Part shown: positions 1 through 18,116 of the stretch, piece after piece
Layout: the number at the start of each line of letters is the position of its first letter
How positions within the stretch are numbered: the first letter of the stretch is position 1
Origin: an uncultured virus (IMG/VR IMGVR_UViG_3300037408_000925)
Lineage: Duplodnaviria > Heunggongvirae > Uroviricota > Caudoviricetes
Reading direction: 5' to 3' (one strand)
DNA: 20,000 nt
IMG/VR virus record: IMGVR_UViG_3300037408_000925
Notes under the pieces: model-generated
What the model was told of the DNA's origin: nothing
The model's input: the letters and a program-made list of their open reading frames with translations, nothing else
Databases searched by the model: none
Program-made: the position numbers and the translations under genes

Positions 1-2
1 TA

Positions 3-92
3 CTCAACTATGGAGGGTTCTCTTGTGGTATAGGTGAATGGAGACCTGAAAAATCGGGTCAATTTGGTATGTATAGAATAGAAGGTCTATAA
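3..92 (+). CDS. 3' end of a putative RAMP/Cas7-like (Vipr-like) RNA-binding protein, truncated by the window edge
   Basis: Frame from nt 3 reads LNYGGFSCGIGEWRPEKSGQFGMYRIEGL* (TAA 90-92). The GxxxGIGxxRxxxxGxFG pattern followed by a final beta strand resembles the C-terminal G-rich loop of RAMP proteins. Lies directly upstream of the periodic array. Confidence 0.65.
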   Translation, partial: LNYGGFSCGIGEWRPEKSGQFGMYRIEGL

Positions 93-109
93 TACCCTAA
101 TAAGATACC

Positions 110-129
110 GAGTGTTTGTATAAACACTC
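110..129 (+). other. Hairpin at the 5' boundary of the array
   Basis: GAGTGTTT(110-117)-GTAT-AAACACTC(122-129), perfect 8-bp stem. Confidence 0.65.
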
Positions 130-137
130 TTGTACAT

Positions 138-427
138 GGTAGGTTGAGGATAGTTCTGGTTTGGTAAGTTTAGGTAAGTTAAGGCAGTCTTGGTAGGTTT
201 GGGTGGGTTTTGGTGTGTTATGTTTTGATGTGTTGTGGCAGTCGTGGTAAGTCAAGGTAAGTTACGTTAGGTTCCTGTGATGTATGTTGAGTCTGTGTAA
301 GTTGGTGTAAGGCAGTCGAGGTGTGTTAAGTCGAGGTTCGTTGATGTTGGTTTTGTTTTGGCAAGTTGATGTATGGCAGTCATGGTCTTGTGGGTTAAGG
401 TGCGTTTTGTTATGGCAGTCATGGTTT
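138..427 (+). ncRNA. Putative guide-RNA array with 5-nt periodicity (KKY-NN pentamers) and GGCAGTC delimiters (VIPR-like RNA array)
   Basis: GGCAGTC occurs at 183, 237, 311, 375 and 414. Spacings of 54, 74, 64 and 39 are all 4+5n. In five units, 50 of 52 pentamers begin with a [GT][GT][TC] triplet (GGT/GTT/GTC/TGT/GGC) followed by two variable bases. The region is G/T-rich, unlike the rest of the window. Confidence 0.8.
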
Positions 428-455
428 GAGTTGGTTAGTATGGATAACCAACTCA
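427..455 (+). other. Hairpin at the 3' boundary of the array
   Basis: TGAGTTGGTTA(427-437)-GTATGGA-TAACCAACTCA(445-455), perfect 11-bp stem with no U-tract, directly upstream of the next SD. Confidence 0.7.
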
Positions 456-473
456 GAAGGGAGATGATATTTA

Positions 474-947
474 GTGGTATTTCAATGGAGAGTAAAAACC
501 TTTCCAGCAGATGCTCAGGTAGTTGGAGAAGTACTAACAGATATAGAGAAACGAACAGGAGAAATAAACCCTAAGACTGTGGTGGATGAGTCTAGGGATG
601 TTGAAGCTCCTCTACATAAATGTTTTGAGTGGGATGATGTTGTAGCCGCTGAAAAACATAGAATAACACAAGCTCAACAAATGATAAGAAACATTGTGGT
701 AGTAAGTGTGGGAGATAGTAATAATACTGAGGTAGAGCCTGTAAGAGCCTTTGTTAGTATAAGAGATATAGAGCCAAATTCACGTAGATATGTATCTATA
801 TCCTTAGCAATATCTAATGATTACTATAATGAACAAATACTTTTACAAGCTTTAAAGGAACTAGAAAATTTTAGAAGAAAATATTCAAACATATCTAAGT
901 TCACAGAGGTTATAAGAGCTATAGATACTGTTCTGAAAGATAAATAA
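474..947 (+). CDS. Phage protein of unknown function, candidate accessory gene of the array locus
   Basis: GTG start after AGAAGGGAG SD; 157 aa. The motif DAQxVGE...PLHxCFEWDDxxAAEKHRxxQAxxxIR resembles a phage hypothetical family as I recall it. Confidence 0.8.
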   Translation: MVFQWRVKTFPADAQVVGEVLTDIEKRTGEINPKTVVDESRDVEAPLHKCFEWDDVVAAEKHRITQAQQMIRNIVVVSVGDSNNTEVEPVRAFVSIRDIEPNSRRYVSISLAISNDYYNEQILLQALKELENFRRKYSNISKFTEVIRAIDTVLKDK

Positions 948-2947: not shown

Positions 2948-2967
2948 AGGAGTGATTAATCTATATG
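2891..2967 (+). repeat. Direct repeat copy 1 (tag-coding sequence + stop + SD + start of next gene)
   Basis: Near-identical to 3340-3415 and, over the coding part, to 4097-4153. Confidence 0.85.
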
Positions 2968-3396
2968 GATGATTTAATTTATAAAGTAATAAGTGAGAGT
3001 GAGTATAAAGCAAATACAAATGTAGATGATATACCTAAAGGACATGTACGTAAAAGAGATGAAGCTCCTTATGGTAGACTTACTGATTTTCTCTCTAGAG
3101 TAACTCGGAAGACAAAACTAGAATTGAATAGGAAATATAATGTAGCCTCATATGAGCCTAGAAATCTAGGCTCATCTAAGTGGCCTGATTGGGTTAAGAT
3201 TGTAAGTATGGATGAGTATATTTTTAAAAGAGAAACCCCCACTAGATTAGTTACTGCTAGTGGTTATCAGATTGGAAAGGAAAAAATATTAGCAATTATT
3301 GATGATGGTAAAATTGTTGATTACAACGAACTCCTTAAAAGGAGAGAAGTAGCACCTCTATCTGATTTAAAAGATAGAGTCAAAGACCTATTATAG
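2965..3396 (+). CDS. Hypothetical protein with shared C-terminal tag
   Basis: AGGAG SD; ends KRREVAPLSDLKDRVKDLL. Confidence 0.8.
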   Translation: MDDLIYKVISESEYKANTNVDDIPKGHVRKRDEAPYGRLTDFLSRVTRKTKLELNRKYNVASYEPRNLGSSKWPDWVKIVSMDEYIFKRETPTRLVTASGYQIGKEKILAIIDDGKIVDYNELLKRREVAPLSDLKDRVKDLL

Positions 3397-3415
3397 AGGA
3401 GTGATTAATCTAATG
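3340..3415 (+). repeat. Direct repeat copy 2 (tag + stop + AGGAGTGATTAATCTA + ATG)
   Basis: Matches 2891-2967 with mostly synonymous changes. Confidence 0.85.
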
Positions 3416-4153
3416 ACTAATAAAAAATATGAGTTTGTAAAAGATGATACAATTGAAGTAAATGGAATAACCCTAACAAGAATAAAAGCTCTAAGGTCTT
3501 TTAAGTTTGTAAAAAAGGGGGAACTTGGGGGGTATATAGAAAAAGAAGATAACCTATCTCATCTTCTTACCTGTTGGGTAGGTGGAAAAGCTAGAGTGCT
3601 TGATAATGCTGTTATAGCTGAAAATGCTCGAGTGGATGGAAGTGTAATAGTAGCTGGAAATGCTAAAGTATATGGAAAAGCTAAAGTATCTGGAACTGTT
3701 GAGGTATTTGAGGATGCTGAGGTATATGGAGAAGCTCAAGTATATGGGGAAGCTTGGATAGCTGGAGAAGCTGAGGTATTTGGAAATGCTGAGGTATTTG
3801 GAAATGCTAGAGTATATGGAGAAGCTTGGGTATATGACAGTACTAAAATATATGGAAAAGCTCAGGTATTTGGAAATGCTAAAGTATATGAATATGCTCA
3901 GGTATATGGAGAAGCTTGGGTATATGGAAATGCTTGGGTATATGGAAATGCTCAGGTATATGATAACGCCAAGGTATATGGAAATGCTGAAGTCTCTGGA
4001 AAAGCTAGGATATTTGAAAATGCTCAGGTATGTGGAGAAGCTTTGGTAGATGGAGATAAAAAAATCTTTGGAGATACAAAATTAGATGGCAAAGTAAGAA
4101 AAGAAGTAGCCCCTTTATCAGATTTAAAAGCTAGAGTTAAAGACTTATTATAA
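3413..4153 (+). CDS. Hexapeptide-repeat (left-handed beta-helix-like) protein with shared C-terminal tag
   Basis: N-terminal RIKALRSF..VKKGELGGYIEKEDNLSH..CWV, then more than 20 hexapeptides [GD][NE]A[KQWE]V[YF] (18-nt DNA period); ends RKEVAPLSDLKARVKDLL. ATG 3413 fits the SD better than GTG 3401. Confidence 0.85.
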   Translation: MTNKKYEFVKDDTIEVNGITLTRIKALRSFKFVKKGELGGYIEKEDNLSHLLTCWVGGKARVLDNAVIAENARVDGSVIVAGNAKVYGKAKVSGTVEVFEDAEVYGEAQVYGEAWIAGEAEVFGNAEVFGNARVYGEAWVYDSTKIYGKAQVFGNAKVYEYAQVYGEAWVYGNAWVYGNAQVYDNAKVYGNAEVSGKARIFENAQVCGEALVDGDKKIFGDTKLDGKVRKEVAPLSDLKARVKDLL

Positions 4154-6218: not shown

Positions 6219-7199
6219 ATGAGAATTAAATGTTTTTCGCATGGGGATTTAGATGGGGTAGTTTCAAATTTATTGATGTGTAGATATTTTAATATGTTGG
6301 GGTACGGTCATTCTACTGAGACCTGTAATACTGGAAAAAGTATAGATGAAAAAATATTAGCTTATATTAATAGTAGGGAGTATGACGAGGATACCATTAT
6401 TATAGTAACTGATGTGTGTATGTCTTATGATGTTGCTAATATCTTAAATACTCTACCCAATAAAAAAATCTTAATAGATCATCATGATACCTCTCAAAAA
6501 ATGCTTGGTAGAGGAAGAGAAGAAGGTACTGATTTTGAATGGGCTTCTATTCAAGAGGGTGATAGTGCTACAATGTTAGTATTTAGATACTTATATAATC
6601 TCGCTAATACACCTGAAATGAAGGAAATGTTAGATTCTTATAAACCTTTAGTTGTTGTAACTGATTTATGGGATACTAAGTCTAGACAAAGTGAGGACTT
6701 TATAGCTTGGAGAGATTCTATAGAAAATATCTTAGCTTTACAGAATGCTTTAGGGATTCAAAATATGAAAGCTAGGTTTCTGATTGACCCTAGTATAGAA
6801 CTAACTGATACTGAAACTGCTATGGTAGATACACTTAAAAAGATTAAAAATAATTACATGAAGTATATGAACATAACTGTAAAACCCATAACATATAAAG
6901 GACAAAACTGTTCTTATGGTATAGGTTTTGGAGGACTTTACCGATCAGAAACAGCAGATTACATCTTTGAAAATAATAAGGAACTTCTTTTTGTAGTACT
7001 AATTGATCTAAATGAAACTAGAGGCTCTCTAAGAAGGTCAAATCACCTTATAGCCGAGAACTTAGATCTTACAAAAATAGCAAAACAAATAGACCCTAAT
7101 GGTGGAGGTCATCCTTTCGCCTGTGGATTTGGTTTTACTTTGGATTCTTACTCTTCTATAATAGATACTTTCTTAAATGGTAACTTTTCTCTAGATTAA
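6219..7199 (+). CDS. DHH/DHHA1 family phosphoesterase (nanoRNase NrnA/NrnB-like)
   Basis: Motifs SHGDLDG, VTD, IDHH, SATML, DLWD and C-terminal GGGHPFACG. Confidence 0.9.
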   Translation: MRIKCFSHGDLDGVVSNLLMCRYFNMLGYGHSTETCNTGKSIDEKILAYINSREYDEDTIIIVTDVCMSYDVANILNTLPNKKILIDHHDTSQKMLGRGREEGTDFEWASIQEGDSATMLVFRYLYNLANTPEMKEMLDSYKPLVVVTDLWDTKSRQSEDFIAWRDSIENILALQNALGIQNMKARFLIDPSIELTDTETAMVDTLKKIKNNYMKYMNITVKPITYKGQNCSYGIGFGGLYRSETADYIFENNKELLFVVLIDLNETRGSLRRSNHLIAENLDLTKIAKQIDPNGGGHPFACGFGFTLDSYSSIIDTFLNGNFSLD

Positions 7200-15683: not shown

Positions 15684-18116
15684 ATGTTGACAGACCAATT
15701 AAGACCAAAAACTTGGGGAGAAATGGCAGGACAGGAAGAGAATATTAAGGTGTTAAAGGCTATACTAAAGAACCCAGAAACATCACCCAAAACCCTAATA
15801 TTAGAGGGAGCTTGGGGTAGTGGCAAATGCATAACGAAAGGAACGAGAGTACATACTTCTCTTGGGTATATTAAGATTGAGGATATACCACATAATAATA
15901 CCTTTGATAGTGAGGGTTTTGCTGTATGTGATGAAGAGATATTTGTAATGGATAATTTTAAGGCATCTCATTTCTATTCTGGAGGGGGAGAACAGACTTA
16001 TATAATAAACTCTCCTTCTTTTGATTTAGAAGGTACTGAAGAACACAGAATAAAAGTATTAAGTAGTAAAGGTATTGTTTTAGAGTGTTTAGGAAATCTT
16101 AAAGTAGGTGATATGGTTTGTCTTGATAGAGCATCTAATATCCTCTTTAATAACAAAACTAAAAAACCCAATACTCTGAAAGATAAGAGTGAGAAAGGGT
16201 ATGGTCATTTTCTAGGATTTTTCTACGGTGATATCCATTTTCATAGTGTTGTACCTCATATAGACTGGGGACTCTCTCAAGAAATTTTAAATGAGCTTAA
16301 AGAACTTGGTATAGGAGAATCTTTTGAGAGTATACCAGAGTGGTTCTATACTTCTAATAAAGACTTTCTTAGGGGATTTATTGAGGGTTTTATAGATACT
16401 CAACAAAAGGGTAATATATTAGGACTCTTAGAGTATACCTCTTTTCAAAAAGACTTGGTTTATAGTATTAGAGATATCTTTAATCTGTTTGGAATCTATC
16501 CTAAAATAGAAGTACAAAAGAAGAAAGATATTGAGTATACTCTATTGCTAAGATACTCTGATTTTTCTGATTTTCTTTTCTATGATTCTTATGGAGCTTT
16601 TATTGATAGTAGTAATGAAGATATAACTTCCCTAACAAATGAGATATTTGATGATAAAAAATGTTATCGCTTTGAACAGATAAGAAGTATTACCTTATCT
16701 TGTAGTGAAGTCTTTGATATACATGTACCTCATAGTCACTTATTCTACGCTAATGGTCTAATAAATCACAATACTTCAAGTGTTAGAATCCTAGCAAAAG
16801 AACTAAATAAAGTAACAGACCCTAACTTCGATTTAAATTCAAGTGCTTTCTATTATGAGTTTGACTCTACAATTATAGGTAATGTGGAAGAAATAAAAAA
16901 ACTAAGAGATACTCTAGGGATATGTTATGCTGATTATTGGAAAGTTGTGGTATTTGATGAGTGTATGTCTGGAGATACTGCTATAGTACTTGAGGATGGG
17001 AATACTAAAACCATTAGGGAGATTGTAGAGAATAGAGAGAGGGTTAAGGTTCTTTCTTATAATTCTAGTAGTGGTTTGGTAGAAGCTAGGGATGTTATAG
17101 GGTGGTTTAAAAATAACCCTAAAATATTTTATACAGTAAAAACTATCAGACAAAAGGGATTTTTGAGATGCTCTGATAATCATATTTTTATAACTCCTTA
17201 TGGAGAAAAGAAATTAAATGAACTTACTATAAATAGTAGTATTTATATGCAGGATATAAAATTAGGAAGTATGAGTATAATAGAGGATAGGATAACTTCT
17301 ATTAGTATGGATAGTGATATACCAGAAGATTCTTATGATATTGAGGTGGAAGAAAATCATAATTATTTTGCTGGGGGTATTCTTGTACATAATTGTCATA
17401 GCGTTTCTCAACAAGCACAAACGGCATTATTAAAGGTTTTGGAGGAGGTAAGTGCTAAGACTTTTTATTGTTTATGTACTACACATGCACATAAGTTAAT
17501 ACCTACTATACGATCTAGAGCTTTAGAATTGAGATTTGGTAAGATAAGCTATGAGGAGATTATAAAACATCTTGATGGGTTAGAGGGGAGATTAGAAATA
17601 AAAATCCCTACTGAGATAAAAGATCTTATAGCTGTTAGGTCAGAGGGTCATGTTAGGGATATACATATGCTATTAGATAGATTTATAATGGTAGGTGAGG
17701 ATGCTTTTACTGGAAGTATTGCTTTAAATATTAATCTTCTATGTGATTTTTTTGAAGCTGTGCATAATAATGTACCAGAAGATGTGCTTAAGTGTATAAA
17801 TAAATTGCTGTACACACCTTTGAGTCTTATTGAGTCTGATTTCAGTATGTTTATGGTTAAATGTATAAAATGTTTAAATAATTTACCTGTAAACAGTGTT
17901 AAAATAGAAAGAATCGTGAAGTTGTACGGATCTAACATAACAAAATTAATAAAATCTTTTTTTAGTGATTGGATGAGATCTGCTTTTATTTCGGAATATC
18001 ATTTTGAAGCTACTTTATTATACTTTTATTTGACTTTAAAAAATGATATGAATATATTAGATAAAACTGATAAACCTAATAGAGTTACACAGATTTTTAA
18101 AGATGTAAAAAATTAA
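15684..18116 (+). CDS. dnaX: DNA polymerase III gamma/tau-like clamp loader ATPase containing two inteins (~351 aa after splicing)
   Basis: LRPKTW..MAGQ; Walker A GAWGSGK|TS; Walker B VVVFDE|CH; AQTALLKVLEE; TIRSRA; SEGHVRD. Confidence 0.9.
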   Translation: MLTDQLRPKTWGEMAGQEENIKVLKAILKNPETSPKTLILEGAWGSGKCITKGTRVHTSLGYIKIEDIPHNNTFDSEGFAVCDEEIFVMDNFKASHFYSGGGEQTYIINSPSFDLEGTEEHRIKVLSSKGIVLECLGNLKVGDMVCLDRASNILFNNKTKKPNTLKDKSEKGYGHFLGFFYGDIHFHSVVPHIDWGLSQEILNELKELGIGESFESIPEWFYTSNKDFLRGFIEGFIDTQQKGNILGLLEYTSFQKDLVYSIRDIFNLFGIYPKIEVQKKKDIEYTLLLRYSDFSDFLFYDSYGAFIDSSNEDITSLTNEIFDDKKCYRFEQIRSITLSCSEVFDIHVPHSHLFYANGLINHNTSSVRILAKELNKVTDPNFDLNSSAFYYEFDSTIIGNVEEIKKLRDTLGICYADYWKVVVFDECMSGDTAIVLEDGNTKTIREIVENRERVKVLSYNSSSGLVEARDVIGWFKNNPKIFYTVKTIRQKGFLRCSDNHIFITPYGEKKLNELTINSSIYMQDIKLGSMSIIEDRITSISMDSDIPEDSYDIEVEENHNYFAGGILVHNCHSVSQQAQTALLKVLEEVSAKTFYCLCTTHAHKLIPTIRSRALELRFGKISYEEIIKHLDGLEGRLEIKIPTEIKDLIAVRSEGHVRDIHMLLDRFIMVGEDAFTGSIALNINLLCDFFEAVHNNVPEDVLKCINKLLYTPLSLIESDFSMFMVKCIKCLNNLPVNSVKIERIVKLYGSNITKLIKSFFSDWMRSAFISEYHFEATLLYFYLTLKNDMNILDKTDKPNRVTQIFKDVKN
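15828..16772 (+). mobile_element. Intein 1 (315 aa) in Walker A, with degenerate LAGLIDADG endonuclease remnant
   Basis: Starts CITKGTRV, block B GTEEHRI, FLGFFYGD and FIEGFIDT motifs, ends VFDIHV...FYANGLINHN|T. Confidence 0.9.
16962..17393 (+). mobile_element. Intein 2 (144-aa mini-intein) in Walker B
   Basis: Starts CMSGDTAI, block B CSDNHIF, ends SYDIEVEENHNYFAGGILVHN|C. Confidence 0.92.

Follow-up and report, generated by a model that had tools for sequence, protein, structure and literature searches.

VIPR systems, first described in 2026, combine a RAMP protein, Vipr, with guide RNAs termed vrRNAs, each of which is built from 9–16 YNNGG repeats (10.64898/2026.04.26.720920). In the 2026 bioRxiv preprints on VIPR, targets are read by a rule in which two bases are paired and one is skipped, rival elements are silenced at the level of transcription, and seven VIPR types and six accessory (vap) genes are distinguished, with NNNGG, YNNNG, and NNNNG as related consensus sequences. 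The same sources report that the arrays of phage SUSP1, a type II system, are transcribed and bound by Vipr. One figure legend (fig. S18) additionally refers to “staggered arrays with 1 nt overlapping positions” (10.64898/2026.04.26.720920). The present work concerns bases 1–947 of a 20,000-nucleotide stretch of DNA (referred to throughout as the window) from an uncultured tailed-phage-type virus of the class Caudoviricetes, IMG/VR record IMGVR_UViG_3300037408_000925. With a probability of about 88%, these bases make up the downstream two thirds of a VIPR locus carried by a phage, in which vipr, the vrRNA array, and a vap-like gene follow one another in that order. An earlier annotation made from the letters of the window and its open reading frames (ORFs), hereafter the sequence-only reading, had proposed a VIPR-like, non-CRISPR RNA-guided system at this place and had referred to a phage family in which a RAMP-like protein accompanies an RNA of alternating GGY and NN motifs. 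That description matches the 2026 preprints, and the proposal gains support from homology to Vipr, from the RAMP fold of a relative, and from the conservation of both array and partner gene. VIPR is therefore already published as a kind of system, and the window locus is a further example of it, with T-rich anchors (the near-constant three bases that begin each pentamer). The anatomy of the sequence, the fact that the gene fragment is homologous to Vipr, the fold of the relative, the conserved synteny, and the hypervariability of the arrays are established here.

The upstream gene enters the window with its 3′ end (bases 1–92, plus strand), where frame 3 holds 29 codons at 3–89 followed by a TAA stop at 90–92, and it closes with the RAMP-like G-loop GIGEWRP that the sequence-only reading had pointed out. 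In an hmmsearch of 704 six-frame segments, this fragment was matched by a profile of 87 family sequences (A2) with an E value of 6.7e-14 (47.4 bits), over profile positions 186–212 of 215, and the 210-amino-acid (aa) protein of a related locus, L081, aligned with it in tblastn at 52% identity over 25 aa. Against the PDB, profile A2 gave a sole match at E ≤ 1, chain 36pp_D, “SUSP1 Vipr protein,” at E 2.4e-13; with a single-sequence query instead of the profile, the E value was 0.076. The profile also finds the SUSP1 vipr gene in record KT454805.2 at 29061–28474 (E 4.7e-16), in a comparison that covered the first 50 kb of the 90.7-kb record, including the vipr-vap1 locus. In the alignment, GIGEWRP of the window stands against GVGDWRP of SUSP1, placing E-W-R opposite D177-W178-R179, a substitution of D by E that is conservative; in SUSP1 these three residues are reported to contact G1, G2, and Y3 of the anchor (10.64898/2026.04.26.720927). 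The counterparts of two further anchor contacts of the SUSP1 protein, R138 of the thumb and H17 of the beta-sheet, lie outside the window, and the arginine aligned with R138 (R171 in locus L015) is nearly invariant in relatives. The fold was modeled on the nearest full-length relative, the 227-aa protein of L015, in place of the window gene: the AF2 model (pLDDT 93.9) obtained 44 Foldseek matches in the PDB at E ≤ 0.001, and those listed were all Cas7-type RAMPs (type VII Cas7, Csm3, Cas7-11, and Cmr6), so that the fold expected by the sequence-only reading was returned for this relative. Because the fragment matches the family profile, the profile matches SUSP1 Vipr, the G-loops align, and the relative has a Cas7-like fold, the upstream gene is, on sequence homology, Vipr, known here from its last 29 codons, with some 200 N-terminal codons lying before the window.

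Downstream of the gene, bases 138–427 form a G/T-rich tract (G 105, T 116, A 48, and C 21 of 290) with a pronounced period of five. The autocorrelation of the tract at lags 5, 10, 15, 20, and 25 is 0.42, 0.49, 0.43, 0.42, and 0.43, against 0.22–0.30 at lags 2, 3, 7, and 8. A sliding periodicity score peaks there at 0.335, while the rest of the 20 kb has a mean of −0.011 with a standard deviation of 0.034, and no other 120-nucleotide segment of the window outside bases 1–450 scores above 0.15. The 20 kb contain five copies of the heptamer GGCAGTC, at 183, 237, 311, 375, and 414, all of them on the plus strand and within the tract; it was not found on the minus strand of the window. The intervals between its copies are 54, 74, 64, and 39 nucleotides, each of which equals 4 modulo 5; this bears out the earlier statement that all delimiter spacings are of the form 4+5n, and the sequence and pentamer parse of 138–427 given with that statement could be reproduced as written. 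GGCA, which had been proposed as the delimiter, is indeed recurrent and in register, but it is better read as part of a full pentamer, GGCAG, whose last G is at the same time the first base of the next unit (GTCNN). Parsed in whole pentamers, bases 138–418 then resolve into five units of 10, 11, 15, 13, and 8 pentamers with one G shared at each GGCAG/GTC junction. Because adjacent units overlap by one nucleotide, the GGCAG/G junction fits the published staggered form.

All five guide units lie on the plus strand. Unit 1 (138–187) has 10 pentamers and closes with GGCAG, its 5′ end being without a delimiter; unit 2 (187–241) runs for 11 pentamers from GTCTT to GGCAG and has G187 in common with unit 1 and G241 in common with unit 3; and unit 3 (241–315), unit 4 (315–379), and unit 5 (379–418) have 15, 13, and 8 pentamers, respectively. 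Units 2–5 each open with GTC NN GGT, and unit lengths of 8–15 pentamers accord with the approximately 9–16 repeats per vrRNA that have been published. By RNA folding the guide units are unstructured (z of +1.13 for unit 1 and −0.50 for unit 3), and bases 1–1400 contain no Rfam match at or above a family gathering score, the four weaker rows having E values of 0.009–0.96. It might be argued that the tract is no guide array at all, but a low-complexity repeat that happens to lie beside a RAMP-like gene and acts at the level of DNA (as iterons or as a packaging or recombination site) or encodes a Gly/Val-rich peptide repeat, and short ORFs do overlap it on both strands. The coding version was rejected, since a 5-nucleotide period with −1 slips at the unit joins is incompatible with translation, and the Rfam result speaks against the remainder of this explanation, as do the relatives of the locus.

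These relatives were gathered by an alignment-based search with the family of the 157-aa protein encoded downstream of the array, which yielded 80 metagenome and 80 IMG/VR loci; a single-protein search of the viral_contigs collection had given no match. By tblastn with the L081 protein, 142 of the 160 loci contain a Vipr homolog, which in every case shares the strand of the accessory gene and in 133 of the 142 precedes it, so that the accessory gene seen beside the array by the sequence-only reading is a conserved partner. Of the 18 loci with no Vipr match, 15 offer less than 450 bases of sequence ahead of the accessory gene. At least two delimiters lie between vipr and vap in 82 of the 142 loci, as in the window, and in the others the array is downstream or upstream; L081, for instance, has a 210-aa gene ending in GVGEWRP, a GGCNN array broken by GGCAGGC, and a 157-aa homolog, with a further array upstream of the 210-aa gene.

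The arrays themselves are as regular as that of the window. At least three GGCAG[GT][CT] delimiters stand on the gene strand in 142 of 161 sequences, beside Vipr homologs, and 653 of 824 delimiter spacings equal 4 modulo 5 (a further 94 equal 3 modulo 5), with modes of 49, 54, 59, and 64; 5-nucleotide periodic arrays, which the sequence-only reading had proposed to look for in the DNA of homologs, thus occur across the family. In the 5192 internal pentamers of 539 distinct units, G fills position 1 in 93% of cases and position 2 in 80%, with T at position 2 in a further 16%; position 3 is divided between C (50%) and T (43%), and positions 4 and 5 are near-uniform (0.09 and 0.04 bits). Most units have 10–13 pentamers, within the published 9–16. 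Between closely related loci the arrays turn over: in four of 18 pairs compared (L085/L091, L093/L091, L092/L093, and L088/L095), vipr is 92–98% and vap 97–99% identical at the DNA level, whereas the arrays between them are 56–68% identical and unequal in length. Pairs that share their arrays were also seen (L140/L141 at 99% and L133/L125 at 98%), and the near-identical unit pairs, seven in number, were too few for counts of mismatches by pentamer position to be informative. The earlier expectation that the NN bases vary between related phages therefore holds on the relatives of the window phage. Arrays that change while their flanking genes hold constant behave as guide arrays do, and, together with the recurrence of delimited arrays beside Vipr homologs and the reported transcription and Vipr binding of the homologous SUSP1 arrays, this leaves a non-guide repeat as a highly improbable account of the tract.

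Named phages also belong to the family. In Gordonia phage Pipp (MN234179; L161), gene 42 encodes a Vipr homolog (E 2.2e-64), gene 44 is the partner gene, and an array delimited by GGCAGGC lies between them. Mycobacterium phage Quico (NC_028751) has an unannotated array (L162 1475–1735) upstream of gene 57, which encodes a Vipr homolog (E 7.2e-53), and of gene 58. The Pipp “gene 43, hypothetical protein” (L161 2218–2487) is placed entirely on the pentamer array and is probably a spurious coding sequence, because it lies wholly on the array between the Vipr homolog and the partner gene.

In the window, the partner is a 157-aa protein encoded on the plus strand at 474..947, with a GTG start and a GGGAG ribosome-binding site at 459–463. 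It has 115 relatives, none with a Pfam family, and belongs to PHROG 15946, whose function is unknown; a search of the Atlas with it returned viral hypothetical clusters only. Its AF2 model (pLDDT 94.4) shows a winged-helix-like N-terminal domain and a C-terminal helical hairpin, and VIA-align placed it at Z 5.1–6.4 to winged-helix proteins among many tied rows, all of which are under the caution line of Z 8. By analogy with the published systems, the protein is probably a nucleic-acid-binding accessory factor.

The feature that most distinguishes the window array is the composition of its anchors. When the closing GGCAG pentamers are counted, 55 of 57 pentamers begin with K-K-Y (K being G or T), and the anchors comprise 22 GTT, 13 GGT, 7 GTC, 7 TGT, 6 GGC, 1 GGA, and 1 GAT; the figure of 50 KKY triplets in 52 given in the sequence-only reading is right for its own parse, the exceptions being GGA and GAT. 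The last two bases of the 57 pentamers take 14 different values. In the best phase the KKY count is 39, compared with 22.7 ± 2.0 and a maximum of 30 in 1000 dinucleotide-preserving shuffles, and the information at positions 1–3 of the window array is 1.32, 0.86, and 1.52 bits against 0.23 and 0.14 bits at positions 4 and 5. Among the 39 internal pentamers of the window, GGY, GTY, and TGY account for 26, 54, and 18%, respectively, where the family has 68, 15, and 3%.

Base composition goes some way toward accounting for this difference. At 30.8% G+C (GC), the window is the lowest of 104 arrays compared and its GGY share is among the lowest; across these loci, arrays of higher GC tend to have a larger GGY share (Spearman 0.30, p 0.002) and less T at position 3 (rho −0.50). 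Two loci equal the window or go below it in GGY, L008 (5% GGY and 88% GTY) and L151 (26% GGY and 55% GTY). Because the GGY share and T at position 3 track GC across loci, the relaxed anchor is the end of a continuum that base composition shapes at least in part, and it does not define a separate system. The suggestion that a relaxed scaffold and a GGCA delimiter mark a distinct variant therefore does not stand: delimiting by GGCAG at 4+5n is general in the clade, and GTY anchors belong to a continuum linked to GC. The published scheme itself allows “a related consensus.” As a separate observation, the divergent Vipr of L008, in whose array 88% of anchors are GTY, has E-F-R in its G-loop instead of E-W-R.

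A different interpretation of the same anchors is that the array is decaying, its anchors having drifted from G to T at positions 1 and 2 in a phage of 31% GC, so that Vipr would no longer hold most of the pentamers and a remnant or a partly functional guide set would be left. It can draw on the small share of canonical anchors, on the position of the window at the bottom of the GC range in which GGY becomes scarce, and on the report that perturbing GGY abolished silencing in SUSP1. The drift is not random, however: K-K-Y is held throughout almost the entire array, the 39 internal pentamers are free of purines at position 3, and positions 1–2 are almost never A or C. The five delimiters and the four spacings between them are all preserved, GTC NN GGT opens every unit from the second on, GTY is heavier still in L008 and L151, and GTT, TGT, and AGT pentamers occur in the arrays of SUSP1 itself. 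Simple decay is disfavored because position-3 purines are absent, A and C are rare at positions 1–2, and the delimiters remain in register, and we regard it as unlikely. A further reading, which we put forward tentatively and consider rather less probable than not, is that in this low-GC lineage the Vipr pocket takes U in place of G at position 2, and to some extent at position 1 as well, such that GUU and UGU are full anchors, and that the register slip at GGCAG/GUC, with neither cleavage nor a structured tail, ends each filament and sets the limits of the guide. If this were true, the lineage would represent a naturally occurring variant of VIPR that follows an anchor code of its own.

If the window locus works as the published systems do, its transcription, processing, Vipr binding, skip rule, and silencing, and the role of its accessory protein, would follow the descriptions in the preprints. 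The plus strand of 138–418 would be transcribed into a G/U-rich RNA of five guide units with 8–15 pentamers each, and one Vipr protomer would sit on each pentamer. The anchor (G-K-Y, mostly GUU, GGU, GUC, and UGU) would be gripped and flipped out by adjacent protomers by means of the G-loop, here E-W-R, and the thumb, leaving the NN pairs of one unit exposed to read double-stranded DNA with two paired bases and one skipped. The bound target gene, in a rival phage, a satellite, or a prophage, would be silenced, the 157-aa partner serving as an accessory factor that probably binds nucleic acid. Our own addition to this scheme is that the one-base slip of register at each GGCAG/GTC junction may mark the guide boundary; since the register slips by one base there, a filament on one unit could not run in phase onto the next.

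A guide array may also be put to another use. Standalone vrRNAs are reported to redirect phage VIPR to decoy sites, and phage-borne orphan vrRNAs to target the VIPR loci of rivals (10.64898/2026.10.15.759431), which makes it conceivable that the window units are a decoy or counter-weapon that titrates or redirects the Vipr of a rival, in the manner of the satellite-borne solo vrRNAs of Escherichia coli. No sequence feature separates such uses from targeting by the phage's own Vipr. The window array is nevertheless no orphan, because it is placed between vipr and the partner gene, which is the commonest arrangement in the clade, and a decoy role is accordingly given very little weight beside that of guides for the neighboring vipr.

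Several observations weigh against the reading of these bases as a VIPR locus. Only 29 vipr codons fall inside the window. Canonical GGY anchors make up only 19 of the 57 pentamers (33%), and, as the SUSP1 perturbation experiment in the 2026 bioRxiv preprints found silencing to be abolished when GGY was altered, binding might be poor for many pentamers of the window, unless a U at position 2 is acceptable in this clade. According to the first preprint, small-RNA sequencing confirmed the ribozyme-interspersed and single-vrRNA forms only (10.64898/2026.04.26.720920), so that the staggered form is as yet deduced from sequence. For the accessory protein, no significant match to a fold or a family was obtained, its best E value being 0.43 in Foldseek against the PDB and 0.16 in a profile search of the PDB. 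Three loci (L053, L112, and L113) gave no Vipr match despite sufficient upstream sequence, L112 and L113 having full 5-kb flanks. Lastly, when the window and the 160 loci were scanned for targets with a 1-nucleotide skip, the best scores of the five units were 16/20, 17/22, 23/30, 19/26, and 13/16, no better than those with skip 0, skip 2, or non-self skip 3. The sole matches above background in this local scan were those of the arrays against themselves at skip 3, an outcome that agrees with the lack of self-targeting described in the preprint and says nothing about real targets.

The sequences between and around the genes offer some candidate signals for the array. A promoter-like site (TTGGTA, 18 nucleotides, TATAAT; 10 of 12 matches) lies on the plus strand at 64..93, inside the end of vipr, and is a possible, weak array promoter; it is a mere lead, because the region contains six such sites where shuffled sequences give 5.1. 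A 45-nucleotide A/T-rich spacer separates the vipr stop from unit 1, while in relatives the first GGCAG delimiter follows directly after the stop codon. The spacer contains an 8-bp hairpin at 110..129 (−8.9 kcal/mol, z −1.33), which 22 of 200 shuffles equal and which is thus not significant; it is terminator-like on the minus strand and may be a vipr terminator, a 5′ boundary, or the product of chance. At the other end, the array finishes on the plus strand at 418..457 with GTCAT GGTTT and then a 13-bp hairpin (425–437 with 445–457) of −19.8 kcal/mol and z −4.63, which none of 200 shuffles equaled. Its 5′ arm is pentamer-like, the C/A-rich leader of the accessory gene supplies its 3′ arm, and no T-run follows; it would serve as a 3′ cap or the end of the array transcript. 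As a conserved tail of the family this hairpin was rejected: among 80 distinct array tails of relatives, 10 reach z ≤ −2 and a stem run of at least 8 occurs in 22, so that comparable hairpins are present in 10 to 22 of the 80. Just 3′ of the accessory gene are a Gly/Lys-rich micro-ORF of 15 codons (997–1044) and an 11-bp hairpin (1055–1081) with a terminator-like score on both strands.

Searches of public data place the window in wetland metagenomes. An exact 60-mer of it was not found in the viral_contigs or metagenome_contigs collections, and megablast gave no match to it in phages. It is contained in contigs from two runs of wetland metagenomes (X1 and X2), which extend 1447 and 8547 bases upstream. 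Record 6 of the run X2 contigs has, about 5.7 kb upstream of base 1, a 27-nucleotide reverse-strand match to array bases 201–227 with two other letters, which may represent a duplicated guide or another array in inverted orientation. A third run (X3), a possible relative, covers window bases 660–899 and 1351–1395, outside the array, and no RNA dataset was found among the public runs containing window bases 1–1000.

Most other ORFs of the window have no family in Pfam or PHROG scans. Those that could be described include a vWA-TerF-like protein (1856–2590), a DHH phosphoesterase (6219–7199), and an 810-aa protein with a clamp-loader-like segment (15684–18116). Three plus-strand ORFs, 2597–2947, 2965–3396, and 3401–4153, have unrelated N-terminal parts and a common tail of about 17 aa, ending EVAPLSDLKxRVKDLL before the stop, and the three occurrences of APLSDLK in the six frames of the window all fall in them. 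The third of these ORFs has YdcK beta-solenoid and bactofilin-like repeats, and the common tail may be a docking or packaging tag.

Set beside the described systems, the window locus adds nothing categorically new, but its array is a short and clean example of the staggered form and a natural test case for how strictly GGY is required as an anchor, since two thirds of its anchors are non-canonical and yet the array looks well kept. The family data consist of 142 loci and 539 distinct units, together with statistics on the delimiters and the turnover of guides between gene pairs that are nearly identical; they also draw attention to VIPR loci that are unannotated or mis-annotated in named phages of Gordonia and Mycobacterium. 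With the staggered VIPR arrays, as far as the preprint describes them, the window shares a Vipr homolog and an accessory gene, a three-base anchor with free NN, a 1-nucleotide overlap at the unit joins, and carriage by a phage. It differs from its own relatives with staggered arrays in that its anchors are mostly GTT, GGT, GTC, and TGT rather than GGC and GGT (GGY 33% versus 68%), its delimiter is GGCAGTC rather than GGCAGGC, and its first unit lacks a delimiter.

The type II system of SUSP1 (KT454805.2; 36pp) resembles the window locus in its homologous Vipr with G-loop and thumb arginine (the latter judged from relatives), in the module of vipr and a protein of about 150 aa, and in G/T-rich guides of about 10–16 pentamers on the gene strand, which likewise, from their sequence, hold occasional GTT, TGT, and AGT pentamers. 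The acid that contacts G1 is E in the window and D in SUSP1. In SUSP1 every vrRNA is closed by an invariant tail that contains a pseudoknot and is set apart from the next, whereas the window units abut without a tail and a lone hairpin follows the last delimiter. The window accessory protein is unrelated to SUSP1 vap1 (hhalign probability 0.2%), and an hmmsearch with the accessory profile A1 found nothing below E 0.3 in the first 50 kb of SUSP1 and nothing at vap1. The window locus accordingly has neither of the marks of the SUSP1-like type II, a 3′ tail with a pseudoknot and Vap1.

More distantly, the Cas7 filaments of class 1 CRISPR systems (Csm3, Cmr4/6, type VII Cas7, and Cas7-11) share with Vipr the RAMP/RRM fold, the G-loop, and the thumb, as judged from the model of the relative, and, according to the preprints for the VIPR side, a guide RNA that is bound in fixed steps, each by one protomer, with bases flipped at regular intervals. 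Neither CRISPR repeat-spacer structure nor an Rfam CRISPR family was found in bases 1–1400, and no Cas family appeared among the matches of the window ORFs scanned (7 against Pfam and 22 against PHROGs); a CRISPR array was rejected as an explanation of the tract, repeat-spacer structure being absent. The two kinds of filament differ in their step, which the preprints give as 5 nucleotides with three bases sequestered for VIPR and 6 nucleotides with one flipped for class 1 Cas7, and the VIPR guide is non-contiguous, in a system that is encoded by the virus and not by the host. VIPR is a newly described and very compact form of RNA-guided reading of double-stranded DNA, from which, according to one proposal, the backbones of CRISPR effectors descend.

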